64,000 nt of DNA from Anaerovoracaceae bacterium. GTDB taxonomy: Bacteria > Bacillota > Clostridia > Peptostreptococcales > Anaerovoracaceae. The stretch spans positions 9,162-73,161 of the forward strand of contig JBGULF010000035.1 of assembly GCA_045115935.1 (NCBI GenBank), read 5' to 3'. Under the pieces are notes generated by a model. That model ran no database searches. It saw only the letters and a list, made by a program, of their open reading frames with translations, and was not told where the DNA came from. Positions 1,901-35,885 of this stretch are shown in pieces (positions within the stretch are counted from its first letter, which is position 1; every line of letters starts with the position of its first letter). A program made the position numbers and the translations under genes.

Positions 1901-3853
1901 CTACCAGCCGCCGCCTCCGCCGCCGCCGCTTCCGCCGCCGCTGAAACCGCCTCCACTGAAGCCGCCTCCGCCGCTCCAGCTGCTTCCGCCGCCGCTTCCG
2001 CCGCTGCTCCAGCCTCCGCCGCTGCCGCCGGATGATGAAGGAATGACGATGCTGTTGTTTACGCTTGCGTTACAGTCGCTCATCATTCTTCCCATCATGT
2101 AGTAGTCAAAGGCGTCCATTCTGTCAGCGCCGCGGTACCAGTCCGGAGCATATACAGGCAGATCCTCGAAGTTCTTTATCCACTTGTTGCTCAGGCCGAA
2201 TACGTAAGCATAAGGCATTATGTGATAGAAGTATCCCGGATCTTCCTCGACGAGCTCATTCAGCTTGTCGAGCTCTGCTGTCTTTATGAAGTCTCTGAAT
2301 CCGAGCACTCTTCCGAGAAGGTCAGTGTATGCATCAGTCCTTGCGATAGCGATCACGGCAAAGAACATGCTGACCAGCGTACCTATCACAAGATACAGCA
2401 CCAGCGCCATTGCCTGAGGTCTCGAGAGAAGGGTGATCGCATCCGACACCAGCGGAAGTATGCCTACGCCCACAGTAAAGAACCAGATCGCGCCGAGGCT
2501 CTTAAGCACCGTCTTCACTTTCGAAGTGCCGCGGACATTGTCGTAGACGGAGCACATAAGATATACGGATATCAGGATATGAACGGCCGCCCAGCCGAGC
2601 ATGAATAGATCCATCTCATCACCGTTGACTCCCGCCCAGGTCACATATGCCGCTGACGGAACGATGGCAGCCACCGAGCAGCCGGCTCTTGCCATGCGCG
2701 AGTCAGGTCTGATGATGGCTTTGTTGCCTTCATACATTCCCTCAAGCTTTTCCTTCGCCTTGACAAACCTGTCTCCGAATGTATGCGAAGATGCAAGCTG
2801 AGTACTTGTCCTTACCCTCTTTTCTCCCGGGAATATGCCGAAATACATCTTTCTGACATAGTCAGGAACTTCCGGACCCGGGTCCTTTATGCCGATGAAT
2901 CTGAAGTTCTTTCTGCTTATCTCCTCTATCTCGAGGTATCCCTTATCTGCAAGGTATACGATAGTAGAGATCAGATCCTTCTTGTCGACCTTGCCGTCCA
3001 CAAGGTAGCCTACCTCGCCCGGAGTCAGATCATCCGGAGCGTAGAACTCAAGAGTCTTTACCATGTGCTTGTCTCTGCCGAAGAGGTACCAGAGCAGGAT
3101 CGCTCCGACAGGTCCGAGCAGGAACAGGAACATATTGGCAATGCTGAGTTTTCCGAATTCCGGTGCTCCTTCCCAGTATCCCTGAGGGAGCTCAAGCTGC
3201 AGTGTCACTCCGTGATGAGCCGGTATGTCATGTGCAGTGACAGTGATGGTCTTTCCGTCTTCGCTTGTTTCGAGAACGGCGTTGTCTTCGTTGGTATCGG
3301 TGCCGTATGAGCCCGAATAGACCTTCGCCTTGCTCAGATCGGCTTCCTTAGGAAGGTTGACCACGCACTTGCTCATTCCTATTTCGGTCTCCCAGTCAGT
3401 CGGGAGCAGGTTGAGGAGCAGCATGTCCTTCTCGTTATTCTCATCCTCGTACATCGCGATATTGTAATAAATGTCATAAGGATTCTCTCCGGTGAGCGTA
3501 TAGCTGCCGCTTCCGATCTTTAAGACCTGATATCCGGATTCCCTGTAGGCCTCATAGTCGTATCCCGGCACTTTGATCCCGGATAATTTCTGCCCCTGTG
3601 TAGGGATGTATCTGTAGATACCGTGATGAGCCGTGACATAGTACATATCGAGATGCTCATGGAAATCATATGAATTGTTTTCCGCAACATCGACGGTCAC
3701 ATCGTAGTTGATGGTATACATCGTGTTGTCGCTCGCATAGCTGCCCGTGCCGTCGGTCACGAACGGTATCGTCATGACTGCCAGTGCAGCTATTGCCAGC
3801 ACGGCCGCCGCCTTTTTCAGGATGCCGGTGCCGCTTGTTTTGATAGTTCTCAT
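1901..3853 (-). CDS. DUF2207-like membrane protein with Gly-rich C-terminal tail
   Basis: Track ORF 1901..4060 trimmed to ATG 3853 (AGGGGGA RBS); the upstream extension overlaps the LemA-like gene. MRTIKTSGTGILKKAAAVLAIAALAV anchor, large extracytoplasmic domain, C-terminal TM helices, then the tail SSSGGSGGGWSSGGSGGGSSWSGGGGFSGGGFSGGGSGGGGGGGW. Architecture and LemA neighbour are typical of DUF2207. Confidence 0.7.
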   Translation of the reverse strand: MRTIKTSGTGILKKAAAVLAIAALAVMTIPFVTDGTGSYASDNTMYTINYDVTVDVAENNSYDFHEHLDMYYVTAHHGIYRYIPTQGQKLSGIKVPGYDYEAYRESGYQVLKIGSGSYTLTGENPYDIYYNIAMYEDENNEKDMLLLNLLPTDWETEIGMSKCVVNLPKEADLSKAKVYSGSYGTDTNEDNAVLETSEDGKTITVTAHDIPAHHGVTLQLELPQGYWEGAPEFGKLSIANMFLFLLGPVGAILLWYLFGRDKHMVKTLEFYAPDDLTPGEVGYLVDGKVDKKDLISTIVYLADKGYLEIEEISRKNFRFIGIKDPGPEVPDYVRKMYFGIFPGEKRVRTSTQLASSHTFGDRFVKAKEKLEGMYEGNKAIIRPDSRMARAGCSVAAIVPSAAYVTWAGVNGDEMDLFMLGWAAVHILISVYLMCSVYDNVRGTSKVKTVLKSLGAIWFFTVGVGILPLVSDAITLLSRPQAMALVLYLVIGTLVSMFFAVIAIARTDAYTDLLGRVLGFRDFIKTAELDKLNELVEEDPGYFYHIMPYAYVFGLSNKWIKNFEDLPVYAPDWYRGADRMDAFDYYMMGRMMSDCNASVNNSIVIPSSSGGSGGGWSSGGSGGGSSWSGGGGFSGGGFSGGGSGGGGGGGW

Positions 3854-8233: not shown

Positions 8234-11200
8234 TATTCCTTTCCGGAGATCTCCCAGACGATCGTTGTATCGATCTCAGGAGTCTCGAAGTTTTCGTTAT
8301 CGTATGTCAGATACGCCTTGGCGGTGTACTTGCCCGGAGCGATAGCTCTGTTGTCCCTGTATCTGACCGCGATCTGCCATGGAACATTCTTCAGCGTGAT
8401 GTGCTTTTCAGTTCCGTCGTATTCGAAAGGCTCTTCGTAATCCCAGTGAACTGCTGAAGTATCGTACTTCGCTCTGAGAATCCTCCACTTGAGGTCAGGT
8501 ATCTCGACGGCTTCACAGTTGCGTGTGTCGTAGATGAGCCTTGCCCTTGCGGTGTATGTGCCTGCGTTGATCTTGGAATTGTCTGTATATACAACTTCGA
8601 TGTCTTCAGGCACGCCTTCGAGCTTCACTTCCTTAGCCTTGTCGTCATATACGAATACTGTGTCATCGCCGTAGTTCCACTTCACCTCTGAGAGATCGAG
8701 CGGCTTCTTGGCGATCTTCCATCTGAGTTCAGGTACTGACGGAGCTTCGAAGTTCTCCTTGTGCTTGTAGCTGAGCTTAGCTTCAGCGGTATATCCGCCT
8801 GCATCGACACCCTTGTTTCCTACGTATGCGTCTACTCTGACGCCGTCAGGCAGTCCGACCAGCCTTACGCTCTTTTCCTTGCCGTCATATACGAACTCTT
8901 CATCGTAATTCCAGCGTACCTCAGACATGTCGTAGCACGCCTTGTCGATGTGCCACCAGCATCCGCTTACAGGAGCAGGAGCCTCGTAATTGACCGGATC
9001 CTTCGCCTCTACGACAGCCATGGCCTCGTATTCGCCGGAGTTAACGGCTCTGTTGTCGGTGTATGTCACCTTGACCGTCTCCGGAAGGCCGGCGAGTTCA
9101 ACGCATTTCTCTTCGTTATCGAATGTGAATGGTCCCTCGTAGTTCCAGTGTACGCCGCTCATGTCGATAGGCGCCTTCAGGATCTCCCACTTGAACGGCG
9201 GAAGTATGCGCTCGGTGTAGTTACCCGGCTCTCTGTTGATCAGCTTTGCAGTCGTATAGTAGACGCCTGCGTCAGTCGCTGTCTCTCCTTCGTAAACAAC
9301 GTCGAATCCTTCAGGGATACCTGCAAGGAACGTTTCAGGAGTAACTCCGCGCAGTTTCTCGAAGAAGCCGAGCTGGCGGGTCTTTGTGGCGATGCATACG
9401 CTCTTCGGAGTTCCGTCGTACATATACGGACCGTCATATACCCACTCCACTTTGTCTGCATCGACTTCAACAGCGGCAGGTGCGATGTTCCAGCTGCAGC
9501 CTCCGAATACAGGCTGCTCATAGTTTTCAGCATCATACTGAAGGTCGACCGAAGCTTCATAAGATCCGGCATCCGTTGCCGTATTGCCCGTATAGACCGG
9601 TGTGACACCCTCAGGCAGGCCTTCGATGTAAACCGACTTCTCGCTTCCGTCGAATGTGAATCCGGTGATGCCGCGCCATGCAGCCTGCGACATATCGTAT
9701 GAAGCCTTGCTGATGCGCCACTCGCAGCCACCCATTTCAGGTGTGTTATAGTTGTCTGCATCGTACTGAAGGTCGGCCGATGCGCTGTAGCTGCCTACGT
9801 TTACCGCGGTGTTGCCGTGGTATACAGGAGTAACTCCTTCAGGGAGGCCGGCGATATATACTGACTTCTCGCTTCCGTCATATACGGACTTGAATTCGCC
9901 TTCCCATCTTGCGCCGGACATGTCGTATGTGGCCTTCACTATGCGCCACTCGCAGTCTCTTATCGAAGTGCCGTTGTAGTTTGCAGGATCCTTAGGCGTG
10001 AGTTCGGCATGCGCGGTGTAATTGCCGGCTGCCGATGCCGTGTTGCCTGTATACTCAACGCTGAGTGATCCCGGAATGCCCTCGAGCTTTACGGACCTGA
10101 CATCGCCGTTATATACAAACGCGCGCGAGTAGTCCCATCTCAGTCTGCGGATGTCCGGATCAGCCTTTTCGATCGCCCACTCGCAGCTCATCTCTTCCGG
10201 TACATTGAAGTCCGAAGTGTCAATGCCGAATCTTGCCACGGCTCTGTATGTGCCTGCATTGACTGCAGTGTTGCCCTCATAGCTGACGCTTACTCCTTCA
10301 GGAATGCCTGTCAGCTGTATCCTCTTCGGTGTTCCGTCAAATACGTAGCTGCCGTCATAATCCCATGCGGCTCCACTCATGTCGTAGTCGGCCTTGTCGA
10401 TGCTCCAGTCGATCCTGACCGGTTCAGGCGCCCTGAAGTTGCTGTCGGATGTTGCGAAGCTGGCGGTAGCGATATAATTGCCCGCCTTGTCAGCGCTGTT
10501 TTCATTGTATTCAGCCGTCACATTCTCAGGCAGACCTGTCAGTTCGATGGTCTTTCTGCCGCCGTCGTATGTGAAGCAGCCAGGTTCGTAGTCCCATCTG
10601 ACCGCGGACATGTCGTAATCGGCTTTCTCGATCTCCCAGTCGCAGTCTGCAACGGACGGTGTGTTGTAGTTCGCAGGGTCAGATACCGTAAGCGTCGCTT
10701 TTGCGGTATATCTGCCGGCTTCCTTGCCCTCGTTGCCGGAATAGTCCGCCTTGATGCCGTTCGGGAGCTGCTCGAGCATTACACTCTGCTCTCTTCCGTT
10801 GAACACCTTAGGATTGTTGTAGTCCCATCTGACTGCGGACATGTCGTAGTCGGCCTTTACGATCTGCCACTTGCAGCTCTCGATGACCGGCTGATTGTAG
10901 TTGTATGAGTCATAAGGAATGAGCTCTGCAGCAGCTTCGTATGAACCTGTGTCAGCAGCAGCATTGCCGGAGTATACGGCTCTGACTCCGTCAGGAAGTC
11001 CTCTGAGCGATACTTCGTGCATCCTTCCGTTATATCTGAATTCACCTTCATAATCCCAGAAAGCTCCCGACATGTCGTAATCGGCCTTCCTGATCTCCCA
11101 CTCGAGTTCCATAGGCTCAGGAGTGTTGAAGTTGCGGCTGTCTGCCGCTGTGAACGTAACGCTTGCCCTGTATTTGCCGGCATCGCGCATCGCGTTTCCT

Positions 11201-14200
11201 CTGTATGTAGGGAGAACGCCCTCAGGCAGTCCCTTCAGGACCACTCTGAACTCACTGCCGTCATATGTGAAAGGCTTGTCGTAATTCCAGCGTACATGGC
11301 TCATATCGTAATCGCCCTTTTCGATCCTCCATGTGAGGTGCTCGAGTCTGGATTTTTTAAGGTTCTCCATGTCGTCAGGAATGATCTCGGCAGCGGCTAC
11401 ATATGTGCCGGCCTGGCTGGCCTTGGCGTTGCTGTACTTGACCATTGTGCCTTCTGGCACGTTTCTGACAGCGACCGTCTTCTCGGTGCCGTCGTAAACG
11501 AAGGACTCATCATAATCCCAGCTGACTGCAGATATGTCTACCGGAGTCCTTTCGATCACCCAGTGGCATGTTGCGACTTCAGGCTTGTTGTAGTTCTTCT
11601 CATCGTACAGGAATCCGGCTCTCGCGGTATATTCACCTGCTGCCGAAGCCGAGCTGCCTTCGTACTCAGGTGTGAGGCCTTCAGGCAGTCCTGTCAGCCA
11701 GATGCCCTTTGTATCGCCGTCATACGAGAATTCCCTGTTCTCCTGCCATCTGACTTCGCTCATGTCGAACGAAGCCTTCTCGATGCACCAGTCGAGCATC
11801 ATGTCAGGGATGTTGTCCTCGTAATTATCAGGATCCTTGACGCTGAACTTCGCAGTCGAGGTGTATGCGCCCGCATCAGTTTCGGTTGCGTTGAAGTACT
11901 CTGCGGATACTCCGTCAGGGAGTCCTGCGACACTGACAGTCTTAGGGCTGCCGTCATAGACGAACGGCTCGCTGTAGTCCCAGTAAGCTCCGCTCATGTC
12001 GAACTGCGCCTTGCTGATGCCCCATGAGCAACCCTGCGGATCAGGGGCTCTGAAGTTGTTGTCATCAACAGGTGAGAAGATCGCTTTTGCGAAGTATCTG
12101 CCGGCGCCTTCTGCTGTGTTGCCTGTGTATTCGACATTGACGGCATCGCCGAGGTCGTTGATTATGCTTACGGATTTCTCGCTTCCGTCGTATACGAAAC
12201 CAGACGAGTCTGTCCATGACAGCTGCGGCAGTTTATACTCCGCCTTGTCAATCGACCACGAGCAGCCGTTGACCTCAGGCACCTCGTAATTGTTTGCGTC
12301 GGTCGGTACGAGCACCGCGCTTGCGGCATACATTCCCGCCTCTACGAATGTGTTGCCGCTGTACTCAACTTCAACTCCCTCAGGAACGTTGACCAGAACG
12401 ATCCCGTGCTCGTTTCCGTCATATTCGAACGGCTCAGAATAATCCCAGCGTACATCCGAAATATCTATCCTGTTCTTCAGTATCCTCCATCTGCAGTCCG
12501 CAGGGGATGCTACTTCGAGGTTGTCTCCGTCGAATTTCAGTCTGGCATGCGCATTGTAGATGCCTGCATCGTATGCGGAAGCGTTCTCATACTCCGCATA
12601 AACGCCCTCAGGCAGTCCTTCGAGCTCCACGCCTTTGGCCTCTCCGTCATAGGTGAAAGGTGCGTCATAGTTCCATCTTACGCCGGACATGTCGACAGTC
12701 TTTTTAGCGATACTCCAGCCTGTGGTCATGTCGTCAGGCGTATTGTAGTTGTGTGTGTCAGGATTGATGAAGGAAACGCGTGCGGTGTATTCGCCGGCTC
12801 TTCTTCCCTCATTTCCGCTGTATCTGACTCCGAGCTCCTTAGGATACGATGCCAGCTGTACGCCGTGCATCTCTCCGTCGTATTCGAAATCCGTGTCTGC
12901 GCACCATGCGGCACCGGACATATCATAGGAAGCCTTTGCGATCTCCCATTCATACTCCGCCGGGCCCATGAGGCAGTAGTTGCCTTTCAGGGATGCTCTC
13001 GCGAGATACTTTCCGGCCTGGGACTCCTCTGCTCCGTCATATTCAACGTCAGCATCCTCAGGCAGATTCGTGATGAACACCTTCTTCGGTTCGCCATCGT
13101 ATACAAAGTCTTCACAGCCCGACCACTCGAGGTCCGCTGCATCGATCTCTACCTTTTTTATCTCCCATACGCACGGAGCCACATCCTGCGGCTTCTCGTA
13201 ATTGGAGCCGTCATAACTGAATTTTGCTCTTGCGGTATAGACACCGGCTTCTCTGCCTGAATTGTTTTCATAAGAAGCAGTGACGCCCTCAGGCAGTCCC
13301 TTGAGCTCTACGGAATGCTCAGCGCCGTCATATCCGAACGGACCGTCATATACCCAGCCTACCTGCGACATGTCGTAGGTTCCCTTGCGGATCGTCCACT
13401 CGTGTTCGCGGACTATGAGCGGCTCATTGAAGTTATCCTGATCGAAATCGAAGCTGAGCGTCGATGTGTATGTGCCTGCCTCGACTCCCTCGTTTCCTTT
13501 ATATTTAGGCACGACGCCTTCAGGCAGTCCCTCGAGCCATACGCGCTTGACGCTGCCGTCGTAAGTCATGTCATCTTCTTCTGCCCAGCGCACTCCGGAT
13601 ACATCGATGTTGGCTCTGCTGATGCTCAGCTTAACGGCATTCGAAACCGCTTCGCCAATGCTGTTTGCAGCGTGGAGTCTCAGAAGATATCCGTCGCATG
13701 ATACAGGAAGGATGGCGTTATGGTTGATCGGACGCCAGCTGCCTTCTTCTCCTGTAGCGCTTATTTCAAGATATCCCGTGACTTCAGGGTCATTTACGGA
13801 AATGATGTCCGGAAGTTCGAACGGAATGGTCTCTCCGAACGAGAAAGGAGCCGGTTCGCTGACCTCCCCGATTTTCGGAGCATGTCCCCATATAGCGTAA
13901 AGATCGAGATCCCTGTCGACCGACTTGACATCTGATCCGGCCGGAAGTGCAGCTCCTTTTCCGTCAGGACGCGAGTTCCATGTCATGAACTTCCAGCTTT
14001 CATCAGGTCTGTCAAACATAGGTGTCTCTATCTGATATCCCGCGTTAGGGATCGTGCGTCTTTCCTCAACGATCTCTTCAGCCTCGCCGTCAAAGTTGCT
14101 GTGATAAAGCACCCTGAAGCCCTCTACTGCTATCGGCTTTGCCTTTTTGTACTTGCCGTATTCCTTCACTGCAAGTCTGCCGCAGTCCGTGCTTCCGTCG

Positions 14201-30941: not shown

Positions 30942-31063
30942 AACACTTCTCCCCCGGTTCAGTTTTTTAATTCTAAGTGATACTCTTCATTCGCCATCAT
31001 AAGGAATCTCTCCTTCAGACAATCTTTACGAAAACCCCATCCTTGAATGACAAAATGATAAAA

Positions 31064-31936
31064 CTATACCCCTATATATCCGGTAAAAACGTCTTCAGCC
31101 GGGCCGGTCATGAAACATTTACCTGTCGCCCGATCGTATCTGATCAGAAGATCTCCGCCCGCGAGATGTACAAGCACTTCATCATCGATTTTGTCCGCCA
31201 TGATTCCCGCAAATACCGAGGCAGCAGCGCCTGTACCGCATGCCAGAGTCTCTCCTGAACCTCTTTCCCATACGCGAAAGAATATTTCTCCTCGGCTGCT
31301 GATGCTTATGAATTCGGAGTTTACTCCATCAGGAAATCTTTCCCGGGCAAGTATGTCTCCAATCTTCTTTATGTCGATAAATTGCAAAAGTGATCTCTCA
31401 TATGAGGCGGCAATCAGGTCGTTGCTATCGCAGAAGGTATCTCCAAGCTGAGGATTATCCTCCAAAAAGAAAACTGCATGAGGATTACCTATGTCGACTG
31501 CTGTGAAAATAAGTTCTGCGCCGCATAAATTCAAGGACTCAGGGCCTACGCTTACCAGCTTCGGCTTTCCCATGTCGACAGTAACAGAAGTGACGCATCC
31601 ATCCTCAACATCAAAGCTGACCTCTCTCAAACCGGCTTTCGTGTCAATGACCGCATGTCTTCTGTCTTCAGGAATGATGCCGTTATCATATATGTACTTG
31701 GCGACACATCTGATACCATTGCCGCACATGCTTCCTTCCGATCCATCCAGATTGAACATATGCATATATGCATCAGCGCGAGCTGACGGCTCGATGAGTA
31801 TAAGCCCATCTCCGCCTATTCCATAGTGCCTGTCTGACAGTCTGACAGCGAGTGAAGACGGATCATCTACCTGTTCTTCAAAACAGTTGATGTAAATGTA
31901 GTCATTTCCGCAACCCTGCATTTTGGTAAATCTCAT
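31064..31936 (-). CDS. dapF: Diaminopimelate epimerase
   Basis: Start trimmed to ATG 31936 (MRFTKMQGCGNDYIYI). Paired catalytic-Cys motifs SMCGNG and ACGTGA. Confidence 0.92.
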   Translation of the reverse strand: MRFTKMQGCGNDYIYINCFEEQVDDPSSLAVRLSDRHYGIGGDGLILIEPSARADAYMHMFNLDGSEGSMCGNGIRCVAKYIYDNGIIPEDRRHAVIDTKAGLREVSFDVEDGCVTSVTVDMGKPKLVSVGPESLNLCGAELIFTAVDIGNPHAVFFLEDNPQLGDTFCDSNDLIAASYERSLLQFIDIKKIGDILARERFPDGVNSEFISISSRGEIFFRVWERGSGETLACGTGAAASVFAGIMADKIDDEVLVHLAGGDLLIRYDRATGKCFMTGPAEDVFTGYIGV

Positions 31937-31967
31937 GTCAGTTCCCCGTTTTGATCTGTGATCCACC

Positions 31968-33050
31968 TTAGATCTTTACGATCCAGTCTCCCATAATGTC
32001 AGGAAGTTTACCGATCTGCATACCGTAAAGCGTATCATAAAGCTTCTGGCTTACATCTCCGACTACTTCGTTGTTGATTACGTGGTCAACGCCCTTGTAG
32101 TTCAGAACTCCAATAGGCGAAATAACACAAGCTGTTCCTGTTGCCCATGCTTCCTTGAGGGTTCCGTTCTGAATCGCCTCGAAAATCTCATCGAGCTCGA
32201 TACGGCGTTCCTCCACTTCATATCCCCACTTACGGAGCAGCTTTATTACACTGTCTCTAGTGACACCCGGGAGGATAGAACCTGTAAGCATAGGAGTAAC
32301 GATCTTATCTCCAATCTTGAAGAAAGCGTTTGAAGTTCCTACCTCTTCAACATAGCGACGCTCTTTCGCGTCCAGCCAGAGGACTTCCTCACAGCCGAAC
32401 TCATGAGCCTTATAGGAGGCGATCATGCCGCATGCGTAGTTGCCTGCGCACTTCGCGAAACCGGTACCTCCGATAGCAGCTCTGATATACTCCTCTTCCA
32501 CTAGGATACGGCTGCCGTGCAATTTGCTCTCATTGCCCTCATAGTAAGCGCCAACAGCACAAAGGATGATGATGAACCAGTACTTCTTGGCAGGCAGTAC
32601 CGAGAAGCTGACCTCCGGCGAGATGATAAATGGACGTATATAAAGTGATGTTCCCGGATCGGTCGGTGTCCAGTCCTCATCGACTTTGACGATAGCCTTA
32701 ACTGCAGCGAGGAAGAGATCCTAATCCATTGGAGGGATGCACATTCTCTCGTTGGTGCGGTTAAGACGCTTTGCGTTCATATCCGGGCGGAACAGATTGA
32801 GCCCGCCTTCTGGATTTCGGTAAGCCTTGAGACCCTCAAACATCATCTGTCCGTAATGCAGAGTTGTCGAACCCGGATCCATGCAGATCGGTCCGTATGG
32901 GATGATGCGTCCGTCGTGCCAGCCCTTTCCTTCGTCATAGTCCATGATAAGCATATGATCGGTAAAGTATTTTCCGAATCCAAGCGACTTGCAGTCAGTC
33001 GGCTTTGGTTTTGGATTAGTGTTTCTTGTTACCGGAAATGTGTATTCCAT
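31968..33050 (-). pseudogene. ilvE: Branched-chain amino acid aminotransferase interrupted by one in-frame TAG (codon 110)
   Basis: Track ORFs 32721..33050 and 31968..32522 share one frame. The 198 nt between them translate without a stop as DLFLAAVKAIVKVDEDWTPTDPGTSLYIRPFIISPEVSFSVLPAKKYWFIIILCAVGAYYEGNESK. The only defect is TAG at 32723-32721. The GGTGFAKCAGNYA PLP-Lys motif is intact. Confidence 0.85.
32721..32723 (-). other. In-frame amber codon inside ilvE
   Basis: ...ATG TGC ATC CCT CCA ATG GAT TAG GAT CTC TTC CTC GCT GCA..., one substitution away from GAG, CAG or AAG. Confidence 0.9.
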
Positions 33051-33221
33051 GTCATGCTCCCTTTTGAATTGTCTTTTAAATTTCGTTCTTTTGTAAAACA
33101 GTTATAATTAGAATAACTCCATTGCAATGCTATTCATAATACATATTATGTTGGTATTACGATATGATTTGTGTATGATCCACGCAAATCCGCCGTTTGC
33201 TCCGTTCCTCTTGATTACTGG

Positions 33222-33284
33222 CAAGTGTAAACAAAAAAAGGATTCCGCTCAATCATGCGAAATCCTTACCACAAACCCATGCAT
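33222..33284 (-). repeat. Copy A of a ~60-bp terminator-containing repeat
   Basis: Plus strand: caagtgtaaacaaaaaaaggattccgctcaatcatgcgaaatccttaccacaaacccatgcat. Aligns over its full length with 35828..35885. Confidence 0.8.
33229..33267 (-). terminator. Rho-independent terminator downstream of the HD-RyR gene
   Basis: Minus strand: AAGGAUUUCGC-AUGAUUGA-GCGGAAUCCUU followed by UUUUUGUUU. Confidence 0.75.
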
Positions 33285-33415
33285 CGTTCCCGAGTCATTC
33301 CAACGTTTGAGTGCATCGTTCCGACTTTTTTCCGTTTTTTGAAAATCGCTAAAGCGCTTGATTTCACTGTGTTTCAGCGTTTTATCAGACCAATCGGGCG
33401 CACCATTCCCATTTT

Positions 33416-35545
33416 TCACTTGTCGCTGTTTATCCTGTAGATCCGCAGGCCGTCATACTTCTTTATCAGCTTGAGCATGCTCATCATAGGTTTCCAGTCC
33501 TTGCCCTGCTCATCAGGCGGCAGCTGATCATAATGCGCTTTGATCTCTTCTGCTGAAGGATCCCCGTCCATGGTCAGCTTGTGCCTTCTGGTCTGTTCCC
33601 TGAGCGCTGCGCGGACCTGTGATTCTGAAAAGTCTTTTGCGAGTCCGAATTTTTCAGGATGTGTGACATCGAGATCCTTGTCTTCATACTCAATCCCGTA
33701 GCTCCAGCTCATGGATATATGCTCCCTCACCCATCTGTCGTGCTCCATCGGCGCTATCAGGTCGAGTTCTTCCTGGGTGAACGAGGTGAGCATGTCGAAA
33801 TCGACAGGCTTGTCCGTATAGAAGCAGCCTATCTTGTTCAGATACAGATCGAAGTTCCTGGCCTGACGTATATTGGACAGTTTGTACTCGAGCGACATCA
33901 CATCGAATTCCGTCTCCAGCTGCTCTGTCTTGACCGTCTCCTCTTCGCCCTGATGTCTGTATCTTCCGTTGAGGGATACTGCAAAATCATACAGGTGCAG
34001 GAAGTTGCTGTCAGAGAGATATATGTGCTTGCTCTTTCTGTTGGCCCGCCTTACATCCGGGACGGCATTCAGAGGCATTATCGATGTATCGACTATGTGC
34101 CTTATTTCGGTGAGGAATATCTTCTCCTTTTCATTCATGTCGCTGTAGGCCTTGAGTCTTGGGGCTTTGCCTGCCTTTTTCTTTCCGGCTTTCTTTTTCA
34201 GTCTGACCCAGGCATCATATTTTTCTCTGAAGTCATCGATCTTAGGTGATTCTTCGGCGTCATAGTAGTAGACCGCGTTTATCTTTCCATCACTGAAGTC
34301 GAAGTCCGCGGCCATCGGATGCAGCTCGGTCCTCGAATTGCGCCCGTAAGCCGTTCTGTCCCAGCACTGCAGTTCATCGCAGATCATGAGCATGTAAGCC
34401 AGCGGATGGAGCCTTGCCTTGAGAGCCGGTTTTCTGTCCGGATCCTTATAGAAGGCGATCGCGAACTTGAACAGACTGTTATGCAGCATTATCGCGGACA
34501 GAACATCGATGTGAGCACTTGTTATGCTGTCGATCCCGCGCTGGCTGCCGATGGTTTCGAGCAGTTCCCTGCAGAGTCTGGCTGAGCTGAAATAAGCGTG
34601 ATCCATGAAGTAGCCGTTTTCATTCGGCTCTACCGGCTTGCTCCTGAGCTTGCCTAGCATATACTGTTCATGAAAACCGTATGCATCTCCGAGCTTTTTT
34701 GTAATATCGTAAGCCAGAAGCTCATCGGTGCTTCTAAAGTCCTTATGATATATATCTTTGAACCTCGCCCTTGCCTTTTCATTGAGATTCGTCAGCGAGT
34801 AGATATCATGAAATGCCAGGTATATCGTCCCCTTGCCTCTTTCCTTCTTGTCCACTTCGAAATATGACATGACCTGTTCGAATGGTATCTCGAACGGATA
34901 TCCTATGTCGTGGAAGAGCGATGTGAGTCCCCAGTACTCCAGGAAGAAGTTCGCGGTCTTAGCCGACTTTCTCTCCTCTGATTCCCCGCGTTTAAACCCG
35001 ATCAGGTCCTTGTAGAAGCGGCGGAATACCCTGCGGTATTTCTCATTGTTTTCGTAGATCGCGAGACCCAGAGCAAAGACATATACCGAATGGGAGTAAT
35101 GATCCCTGTGCTTCATCAGGAGCGAGCTCGCGTTTGACTCAAATTCCGAAAGGAGTTCAATCATGTTCTGCGAAGCTCCGTATCTGCCTATGAACATCTC
35201 TAGGAAACAGTAATACACGGTGTATGCATCTTCGGCAGTGCCCGAGTCGATGAAATTGCCCAGTTCTCTCTCGAGGCACAGGCGGTCAATATCCATCTGC
35301 ATATTGTACGGGATCTGTCCGGAAGAGGTGCTTCTGCCGGTGCACTGAGCACCAAAGAACTCCGCTTCAGCCTTCTCGTCAAATCTCAGCCCCTCACATC
35401 TTTCGTGAAGGAACCTGAGCGCAGAAGATTTGAGGTCATTGCGGTGTCCGACGGTGTAATACAGAGGCGGCTCCTTCGGTCCGAGATCCTTGCCGAATCG
35501 CTCTTTATTAACTTCCCTCATTGTCTTAAATGCTGTATACGCCAT
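33416..35545 (-). CDS. HD-domain phosphohydrolase fused to a C-terminal RyR domain (709 aa)
   Basis: ATG 35545 with an AGGGGGAA RBS. HD motifs: HRDHYSHSVYV ... LFHDIGYPFE ... MLHNSL ... ICDELQ. The C-terminus APMEHDRWVREHISMSWSYG ... LPPDEQGKDWKPMMSMLKLIKKYDGLRIYRI matches the RyR-domain pattern (H..W......GW.YG ... eK..D...v..ip..L...G..i.r). Confidence 0.7.
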   Translation of the reverse strand: MAYTAFKTMREVNKERFGKDLGPKEPPLYYTVGHRNDLKSSALRFLHERCEGLRFDEKAEAEFFGAQCTGRSTSSGQIPYNMQMDIDRLCLERELGNFIDSGTAEDAYTVYYCFLEMFIGRYGASQNMIELLSEFESNASSLLMKHRDHYSHSVYVFALGLAIYENNEKYRRVFRRFYKDLIGFKRGESEERKSAKTANFFLEYWGLTSLFHDIGYPFEIPFEQVMSYFEVDKKERGKGTIYLAFHDIYSLTNLNEKARARFKDIYHKDFRSTDELLAYDITKKLGDAYGFHEQYMLGKLRSKPVEPNENGYFMDHAYFSSARLCRELLETIGSQRGIDSITSAHIDVLSAIMLHNSLFKFAIAFYKDPDRKPALKARLHPLAYMLMICDELQCWDRTAYGRNSRTELHPMAADFDFSDGKINAVYYYDAEESPKIDDFREKYDAWVRLKKKAGKKKAGKAPRLKAYSDMNEKEKIFLTEIRHIVDTSIMPLNAVPDVRRANRKSKHIYLSDSNFLHLYDFAVSLNGRYRHQGEEETVKTEQLETEFDVMSLEYKLSNIRQARNFDLYLNKIGCFYTDKPVDFDMLTSFTQEELDLIAPMEHDRWVREHISMSWSYGIEYEDKDLDVTHPEKFGLAKDFSESQVRAALREQTRRHKLTMDGDPSAEEIKAHYDQLPPDEQGKDWKPMMSMLKLIKKYDGLRIYRINSDK

Positions 35546-35558
35546 TTTGTTTCCCCCT

Positions 35559-35705
35559 TTAGTCTTCGAACTTCGAGTCTACATACTCAAATTCGTCCAT
35601 GTACGGGTAATCCCGCCAGAAATCATCCATCCTTTTCTTATCTGCTCGCACGGACCATTTCCCCCGCGTCTGCCACGTTTCCGAGAGCGTATATATTGCC
35701 CGCAT
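35559..35705 (-). CDS. Hypothetical 48-aa protein immediately upstream of the HD-RyR gene
   Basis: GGAAG-6nt-ATG(35705) ... TAA(35559): MRAIYTLSETWQTRGKWSVRADKKRMDDFWRDYPYMDEFEYVDSKFED. The stop lies 13 nt before the HD-RyR ATG. Below the track length cutoff; no homology recognisable. Confidence 0.3.
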   Translation of the reverse strand: MRAIYTLSETWQTRGKWSVRADKKRMDDFWRDYPYMDEFEYVDSKFED

Positions 35706-35827: not shown

Positions 35828-35885
35828 CAAGTGTAAAAAAGGACTTCGCGCAATCATGCGAAGTCCTTACCACAATTCAATGCAT
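35828..35885 (-). repeat. Copy B of the ~60-bp terminator-containing repeat
   Basis: Plus strand: caagtgtaaaaaaggacttcgcgcaatcatgcgaagtccttaccacaattcaatgcat. Confidence 0.8.
35834..35868 (-). terminator. Rho-independent terminator after the DDAH-like gene
   Basis: Minus strand: AAGGACUUCGC-AUGAUUGC-GCGAAGUCCUU followed by UUUUACAC, 30 nt after the stop at 35900. Confidence 0.75.

Follow-up and report, generated by a model that had tools for sequence, protein, structure and literature searches.

Why does a large, enzyme-like gene lie intact among amino-acid metabolism genes to which it bears no functional relation? The question is raised by a 64,000-nucleotide stretch of an Anaerovoracaceae genome (hereafter the window; positions 9,162 to 73,161 of contig JBGULF010000035.1, assembly GCA_045115935.1), in which a previous reading, made from the letters and their translations (the sequence-only reading), had described an HD phosphohydrolase fused to a RyR domain and had taken it for a self-contained, accessory or conflict-type single-gene insertion. 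The open reading frame (ORF), here called HD-RyR, is indeed open over 709 amino acids (aa) on the minus strand, and all the motifs quoted for it were confirmed, i.e., HYSHSVYV (aa 149-156), LFHDIGYP (aa 210-217), MLHNSL (aa 353-358) and ICDELQ (aa 388-393), followed by MEHDRW (aa 600-605) and GKDWKP (aa 681-686). Our analysis indicates that the gene is very probably an orphaned member of a family of TIR-associated HD-like plus RyR proteins. The notion of a single-gene cassette, in contrast, was not supported—the family belongs to clusters of TIR and SLOG/SLATT genes, and the window copy is an orphan that still carries the remnant of a neighboring gene.

The family comprises more than 2,144 matches among the candidates scored, all of them unnamed or annotated as 'hypothetical', and 791 clusters at 50% identity. 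As far as homologues and loci carry names, these indicate Mogibacterium/Anaerovoracaceae, Lachnospiraceae and Oscillospiraceae of ruminant and gut samples. In two genomes with close homologues (G005 and G019, 90% and 89% identical, respectively), HD-RyR is the last gene of a single-strand cluster (hereafter the island) that encodes, in order, an LRR_5 protein, an 83-aa ORF, a TIR_2 + TPR protein (835 aa), a 372-aa protein, a DSP-PTPase of the 'Swiss Army Knife' type (460 aa; the intact gene gives a PTP-SAK match in Pfam), a 182-aa protein, a second TIR_2 + TPR protein (899 aa), a 556-aa SLOG/DUF4231 membrane protein and, finally, HD-RyR. Homologues with 60-72% identity, found on long metagenome contigs in four contexts, likewise occur with TIR_2(-LRR) genes and a partner of 531-533 aa, and a 75%-identical copy (P0020) comes immediately after a partner of 555 aa, the stretch covered there containing no TIR gene. 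In G017, HD-RyR comes after a DUF4062 + STAND NTPase, and the G013 homologue has a DUF4062 gene on one side and a SLOG-like gene on the other. The partner proteins constitute one family, as DUF4231 was detected in 7/7 (best E 1.6e-5) and the YAcAr SLOG model in 6/7 of them; DUF4231 is a domain that we take to belong with the SLATT families.

Starting from the partner gave a consistent picture. Across 80 partner loci—taken from species-representative genomes that are mutually related, the counts being descriptive and not a statistical test—an HD-like ORF was present in 42, and 41 of these ORFs also matched the RyR profile. HD-RyR directly adjoined the partner on the same strand in 28 of the 80 loci (23 upstream, 5 downstream), and TIR seeds matched 28 of the 42 partner loci with HD-RyR versus 8 of the 38 without it. 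The family is thus a regular, obligate-looking partner of a SLOG + SLATT-like membrane protein, often within TIR (Thoeris-like) clusters of rumen and gut Clostridia. Some members of ~745-781 aa (P0172-P0246) are triple fusions, in which the HD-like and RyR parts are followed by a C-terminal SLOG-like domain; these fusions unite in one chain what the clade of the window protein encodes as two genes. We also considered RyR and SLOG as interchangeable C-terminal sensors, and ruled this out because SLOG follows RyR in the ~760-aa members.

Moreover, the family is patchily distributed. HD-RyR occurs in 4 of the 24 other genomes of the genus and in 7 of the 399 genomes of the class, and in none of the 16 genomes examined from other families of the same order. 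These figures support the earlier view of an accessory or conflict-type gene, and universal syntenic conservation, the mark of a core gene, was looked for in the relatives and not found. They also bear on the proposal that HD-RyR is a housekeeping enzyme of nucleotide metabolism outside conflict systems, which we regard as the most improbable of the readings weighed here. Although amino-acid metabolism genes surround HD-RyR and it has no defense neighbors in the window, a gene confined to so few genomes of genus and class, with a context that differs even among 99%-identical copies, with a consistent TIR + SLOG-SLATT linkage elsewhere and with no conserved syntenic position found in most relatives, hardly fits such a role.

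A further proposal is that HD-RyR is an anti-defense gene of a mobile element, i.e., a counter to Thoeris that came in with a phage, a plasmid or an integrative element and stayed behind in the chromosome. RyR-domain proteins associated with prokaryotes have been characterized only from phages, as anti-Thoeris enzymes or sponges, exemplified by RyDEP (PMC13232231), one homologous cluster lies ~7 kb from a phage-type integrase, and one match is to a contig labeled 'UNVERIFIED Bacteriophage sp.'. However, this was the only homologue in 50,697 phage records, none was found in 72,556 plasmid records, the lone phage record itself has a TIR-like neighbor and no similarity to other island genes, the relatives carry the gene in operons with the very TIR and SLOG-SLATT genes, and no integrase, transposase or other recombinase was found among the neighboring genes of the window scanned against Pfam—which together make this origin very unlikely. 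The phage record (L160, MT836912.1) is an 8.3-kb unannotated contig with four long ORFs, for which no similarity to the other genes of the island was found; behind a 774-aa HD-RyR-like ORF comes one of 703 aa that begins with a TIR-like FISY.

If the family belongs to TIR clusters, what became of the cluster in the window? A Pfam scan of the neighboring genes revealed no TIR or SLOG-SLATT gene near HD-RyR. Directly upstream of the gene, window 35562-35648 encodes 29 residues, 25 of which (86%) are identical to the C-terminus of the G005 phosphatase (aa 429-457 of 460; tblastn, pairwise E 6e-18), and the abutting stretch 35650-35685 matches, in a different frame, phosphatase aa 32-43 with 10/12 identities (tblastn). 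Judging from these alignments, the two pieces represent an internally deleted, frame-shifted remnant of the phosphatase gene. The short (48-codon) upstream ORF had also been considered as a remnant of the SLOG-SLATT gene; this candidate was rejected when tblastn assigned its origin to the phosphatase gene.

The decay appears to predate the present location. A 99%-identical HD-RyR gene was found on six metagenome contigs, at least five of which represent the native island minus its interior, with a gene of 154 aa and LRR_5 that are 89-96% identical to their G005 counterparts. The order in these gutted islands is LRR_5, a stub of the 372-aa gene covering its final ~40 residues, the N-terminal 18 residues of the phosphatase, a shorter C-terminal phosphatase remnant and an intact HD-RyR. 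Since the phosphatase sequence resumes at about aa 429-430 (...ADKK...) in both the window and the gutted-island lineages, the window copy probably descends from an island that had already decayed. No SLOG-SLATT homologue was found in the remainder of the assembly, which is 88% complete, and five TIR_2 ORFs are encoded on other contigs, including three TIR-TPR paralogues that are 30-41% identical to those of the island. These TIR + TPR paralogues are positioned at C121:~211700-214130, C118:~10200-11930 and C81:~1970-3780.

An orphan in such surroundings might be a functionless relic—the last part of the island awaiting a disabling mutation and carried along by recombination. The adjoining island genes are deleted or fragmentary, the orphan copies split very recently (dS about 0.02), and the G013 homologue has an in-frame TAA, all of which would agree with a relic. 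The reading frames themselves argue otherwise. The ratio of non-synonymous to synonymous substitution rates (dN/dS) is 0.08-0.12 against homologues of 73-90% protein identity, about 0.1 family-wide, and 0.14-0.2 against the 99%-identical orphan copies, which are separated by 5 non-synonymous and 6-9 synonymous changes, whereas ~77% of the changes would be non-synonymous under neutrality (binomial P about 1e-3 by our own arithmetic). In addition, at least three different contexts preserve the 2.1-kb frame together with its ribosome-binding site and its terminator. Small as the numbers are, the orphan reading frame is thus under purifying selection, and we consider a relic improbable. Retention of the protein by selection, even with its TIR and membrane partners lost, argues for a function independent of the cognate system. 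The G013 homologue mentioned above (46-53% identical; L005/L006/L061, G013:C6) has its in-frame TAA between the HD-like and RyR parts, and may be a pseudogene or a split gene.

The next step towards a function is the C-terminal domain. The window protein scored 22.1 bits against the Pfam family PF02026 (gathering score 27.4; E = 1.9e-4; aa 579-624), i.e., below threshold, but 35 of 63 diverse homologues (26-52% identity) matched the same family, with a best E of 2.3e-33, and the gathering score was exceeded by 9 of the 10 family members of ~760 aa. Sequence searches of PDB, either with the single protein or with the family profile, reached the repeat structures of RyR2 and RyR3 weakly (E 0.003-0.03). 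In the family alignment, canonical members display the pattern EH.RW ... GW.YG ... H..[LMV]V ... PY..L...K.DR, and the clade of the window protein differs by an insert of ~10 residues ahead of the Y..L segment and by a variable loop past GW.YG. Within the close clade, residues H602, W605, W614, G617, H655, Y672, L675, K682 and D683 do not vary; they are colinear with the canonical members, and four of them (H602, W605, H655 and D683, hereafter the tetrad) align with H75, W78, H100 and D117 of RyDEP—the residues with which this phage enzyme binds and cleaves 2'/3'cADPR, isomers of cyclic ADP-ribose (cADPR) (PMC13232231). Some homologues bearing these ligand residues are non-catalytic sponges (PMC13232231), so that the tetrad would indicate ligand binding and not necessarily cleavage. 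The AlphaFold2 model places helices at residues 591-611, 641-652, 665-674 and 677-696 of this region, and a Foldseek search with the full-length model returned no RyR structure. Overall, the RyR assignment proposed in the sequence-only reading is borne out at the level of the family and by the conserved ligand residues, and the C-terminal RyR domain appears to be real despite the sub-threshold score of the window protein.

The N-terminal module (aa ~80-445) is more difficult to classify. The histidines and aspartates given as invariant in Table 1 are so in all 63 homologues, with D390 shared by at least 90% of them, and they follow one another (H ... HD ... (D)H ... H ... D) as in binuclear HD enzymes. 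When a hidden Markov model (HMM) of the module was run against the six-frame ORFs (at least 100 aa) of the own genome, two Pfam-confirmed PF01966 proteins were among the top five, and both align with the module at the HD dyad and the DH/HN motifs. Moreover, hhalign of the module against an 18-sequence alignment of the family of one of these two proteins yielded Prob 62-69% and P 4e-5 to 7.5e-5, pairing H152 with HD motif I and H212-D213 with the HD dyad (motif II), while three unrelated control comparisons gave P 0.3-0.5. The structure models (predicted local distance difference test, 80-81; predicted template modeling score, 0.83-0.86) are all-alpha over residues ~80-445. The module has the colinear residue order of HD phosphohydrolases of PF01966, such as HDIG proteins, the HD domain of RNase Y and binuclear HD-GYP/PDE-type enzymes, but, unlike these, contains large inter-motif insertions (60 and 103 residues). 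We therefore label it 'HD-like', as a probable but strongly derived member of the HD superfamily.

What would a protein of this kind do? Taking the domains, the context, the orphan state and the selection evidence together, we tentatively propose the following account, which we hold to be possible though somewhat short of probable. HD-RyR would be a soluble two-module protein, composed of a very divergent, metal-dependent HD-like hydrolase and a C-terminal RyR-type nucleotide pocket. The pocket would bind an ADP-ribose-type signal made by TIR proteins, e.g., a cADPR isomer, and the HD-like center would cleave a phosphoester or pyrophosphate bond of that nucleotide, such that the protein could act as a signal-clearing brake on the SLOG-SLATT effector. 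The window copy, in turn, would derive from a fragment of the decayed island—the phosphatase remnant, HD-RyR and a dispersed element of ~95 nt—that recombined between the terminator of the upstream DDAH-like gene and the ilvE promoter, and might serve as a free-standing scavenger for the other TIR systems of the genome. Directly shown by the analysis are the domains, the family setting, the orphan status and the selection; ligand, chemistry and braking are inferred. For the biochemistry, the most likely scenario is that RyR binds TIR-made ADP-ribose signals and that the protein hydrolyses either these or another nucleotide. The bolder version of this account, in which HD-like + RyR proteins are the first host-encoded destroyers of TIR-made cyclic ADP-ribose-type signals and a built-in off-switch of Thoeris-like systems, with a module that is a new HD branch or a new fold and with orphans kept as scavengers against auto-activation of other TIR systems, we regard as rather doubtful.

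The same two modules could instead form a signal-activated effector, in which RyR would be the sensor of the TIR-made nucleotide and would turn on the HD-like hydrolase. The latter would degrade cellular nucleotides or nucleic acids, as a second arm of killing or arrest in addition to the SLOG-SLATT pore, and other TIR proteins of the genome would drive the orphan. An enzyme joined to a ligand-binding domain mirrors the layout of ThsA (SIR2-SLOG) and of other Thoeris effectors (10.64898/2025.12.03.692087), the triple fusions carry an additional sensor-type SLOG domain, and the genome harbors the TIR-TPR paralogues described above. Furthermore, all 63 homologues of the alignment retain the HD-like residues, whereas the RyR tetrad is degenerate in some family members, where it varies or is lost. 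However, a suicide effector that depends on its cognate signal should, once its own TIR and partner genes are lost, decay as the phosphatase did, and HD-RyR is instead intact with the low dN/dS of the orphan copies; no PADLOC effector model matched it—the PADLOC search proposed earlier, in fact, did not recognize the protein with any defense model, those of dGTPase type included—and no nuclease-type or dNTPase-type similarity was found in Pfam, NCBIfam or the PDB profile search. We thus consider the effector role unlikely, if nearly as good an explanation as the brake. The latter is slightly favored because a lone scavenger would be useful in a genome with five other TIR ORFs, while a sensorless suicide effector should have decayed like its neighbor.

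Several observations weigh against the brake and the account built around it. No HD-type Pfam match was obtained for any of the 63 homologues or for the window protein itself, for which NCBIfam likewise gave no HD-type match; neither the single protein nor the family profile, the latter at E up to 10, retrieved an HD protein from the PDB sequences; and Foldseek returned nothing at E < 0.001, either for the full model against PDB or for a model of the N-terminal domain against PDB and BFVD, the PPX/GppA, PDE and 'HDc' entries being at noise level only. Accordingly, of the HMM checks proposed in the sequence-only reading, that for RyR gave matches in the homologues and a sub-threshold score in the window protein, and that for HD gave no match; the HD phosphohydrolase claim is plausible from its conserved, colinear motif set and the hhalign result (P = 4e-5), with no match in Pfam, PDB profiles or Foldseek. 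In the RyR domain, the HMMER alignment to the RyR structures places an Ala at the Asp position, so that D683 depends on the family alignment. The selection estimate for the orphan copies is built on just 11-14 substitutions. No empty site was encountered among 21 DDAH loci, three near-identical ilvE loci and 12 metagenome contigs, and for this reason we infer the insertion boundaries and the mechanism. Finally, a constant catalytic module combined with a sometimes degenerate RyR domain fits a 'sensor + effector' protein at least equally well.

Comparison with known systems helps to define what is new here. We know of no function for prokaryotic RyR-type domains before 2026. The one characterized prokaryotic case concerns the cleavage of Thoeris signals by a phage enzyme (PMC13232231), namely RyDEP (gp78 of Mycobacterium phage DyoEdafos), which shares a RyR/R12-type domain (PF02026) with the phage RyR sponges and with the window protein. 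The differences are substantial: unlike these small phage proteins, the window protein is chromosomally encoded by the host, is 709 aa long and carries RyR C-terminally to a large, conserved, enzyme-like module, and whereas RyDEP acts against Thoeris, the HD-RyR family is encoded together with TIR genes. Among the Thoeris types that involve SLOG or SLATT—type I with ThsA (SIR2-SLOG), type III with several TIRs and a SLOG effector, and type VII with a TIR and the SLATT protein ThsH acting through canonical cADPR (10.64898/2025.12.03.692087)—the parts list is matched by the clusters of the relatives, with one to several TIRs, SLOG and a DUF4231 membrane protein. Unlike the described types, however, these clusters contain HD-like + RyR as a third conserved component, and the window has neither TIR nor SLOG-SLATT genes. 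The latter publication and its supplements make no mention of RyR, PF02026 or DUF4231, a RyR domain and Thoeris appeared together only in the RyDEP paper (PMC13232231), and no description of a host HD-RyR protein was found in the literature searched. The clusters would therefore represent Thoeris-like TIR signaling with a previously undescribed RyR-bearing component.

Host enzymes that destroy their own second messenger to limit effector activity are known from type III CRISPR systems, i.e., the ring nucleases Crn1-3 and Csx3. The role proposed for HD-RyR would be the same, although the folds and the signal (cyclic oligoadenylates) are unrelated, and the parallel is one of analogy. In more general terms, a host RyR pocket joined to a hydrolase-like module and tied to TIR + SLOG-SLATT would add a component to TIR immunity, be it a receptor, a second effector or an off-switch. 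What the window locus contributes is the orphan state, the evidence for selection and an explanation of where the upstream mini-ORF comes from.

The features of the locus are collected in Table 1.

Table 1. Features at the HD-RyR locus (window coordinates; HD-like and RyR assignments as graded in the text)
Feature	Position	Strand	Remarks
HD-RyR ORF	33416..35545	minus	intact, 709 aa: HD-like module, Lys-rich linker, helical middle region, RyR domain
HD-like module, all-alpha	34211..35308 (aa ~80-445)	minus	H152, H212-D213, D315-H316, H355 invariant; D390 nearly so
Lys-rich linker KKKAGKKKAGK	34166..34198 (aa 450-460)	minus	length differs between homologues
RyR (PF02026) domain	33431..33823 (aa ~575-705)	minus	clade-specific insert; tetrad H602, W605, H655, D683
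Decayed remnant of DSP-PTPase ('Swiss Army Knife') gene	35562..35685	minus	two pieces in different frames (tblastn)
Direct-repeat copy A	35835..35885	minus	terminator-type hairpin just past the DDAH-like gene
Direct-repeat copy B	33234..33284	minus	terminator hairpin of the HD-RyR gene, within a 209-nt unit found elsewhere in the genus
Dispersed intergenic element, ~95 nt	33306..33405	minus	starts 10 nt past the HD-RyR stop codon

The gene has a strong ribosome-binding site (AAAGGGGGAA) 7 nt ahead of its ATG and, as the sequence-only reading had stated, a terminator of its own—a terminator-like hairpin at 33267-33238, ~150 nt downstream of the stop codon. Upstream, the Pfam scan of the neighbors identified genes for a DDAH-like protein and for a polar amino-acid ABC transporter; downstream, it identified ilvE, dapF and a dapH-like gene, as well as genes for an aminotransferase and an M20 peptidase. 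The base composition shows no anomaly at HD-RyR, with a G+C content of 0.48-0.51, the same as that of the flanks.

How the gene came to this place can be narrowed down from the sequences at its borders. The 51-nt direct repeat (copies A and B, Table 1) is 86% identical between its copies, in which a difference in the stem is compensated, and has just these two occurrences in the 2.79-Mb assembly. In 21 relatives and on the metagenome contigs, DDAH has no copy A behind it; the DDAH loci of the 21 relatives have other genes downstream, and on metagenome contigs with DDAH the homology ends at the stop codon. The locus comparison suggested earlier for the region between the repeats therefore confirmed the repeats as real, but brought to light no empty site in the relatives. 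High identity to the other orphan copies spans window 35600 to 33395, and extends to 33311, through the ~95-nt element, in contig L033. The left junction falls between the DDAH terminator (copy A) and the phosphatase remnant, and the ~95-nt element is the right-hand edge of the transferred segment.

This element is closed by a stem of 9 bp and contains an internal hairpin; it is present in multiple copies in the genus, after unrelated ORFs. No Rfam or tRNA match was found for the element or its flanks (Rfam, ARAGORN). It had been considered as the 3' fragment of a tRNA, the reverse complement ending in ...GGTTCAACCGGGCGCACCA, a candidate rejected upon the negative ARAGORN result and the lack of a matching 5' acceptor strand. 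Together with the terminator, the element makes up a 209-nt unit (33197-33405) that is 99-100% identical in the genomes of two other species, in different contexts, and that recurs at 93% identity ahead of a 99.7%-identical ilvE-dapF block in three more genomes, where a gene for a DUF975-like membrane protein, and not HD-RyR, is located upstream of ilvE. These features would fit an arrival by recombination at dispersed terminator-bearing repeats rather than by site-specific integration.

Some minor observations concern the downstream genes. The ilvE-dapF block (window 31000-33199) is ~99.7% identical in G053, G065 and G076, all species-representative genomes of the same genus; such near-identity with a differing upstream neighbor suggests either a very recent exchange or cross-binning of contigs between metagenome-assembled genomes. 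The 360-codon frame of ilvE is interrupted solely by an in-frame TAG at codon 110 (window 32721-32723), which reads GAG (Glu) in two other genomes that are ~99.7% identical over the block. Either a nonsense mutation has arisen recently or the assembly is wrong at this codon. Two more ilvE paralogues are encoded on other contigs of the same genome.

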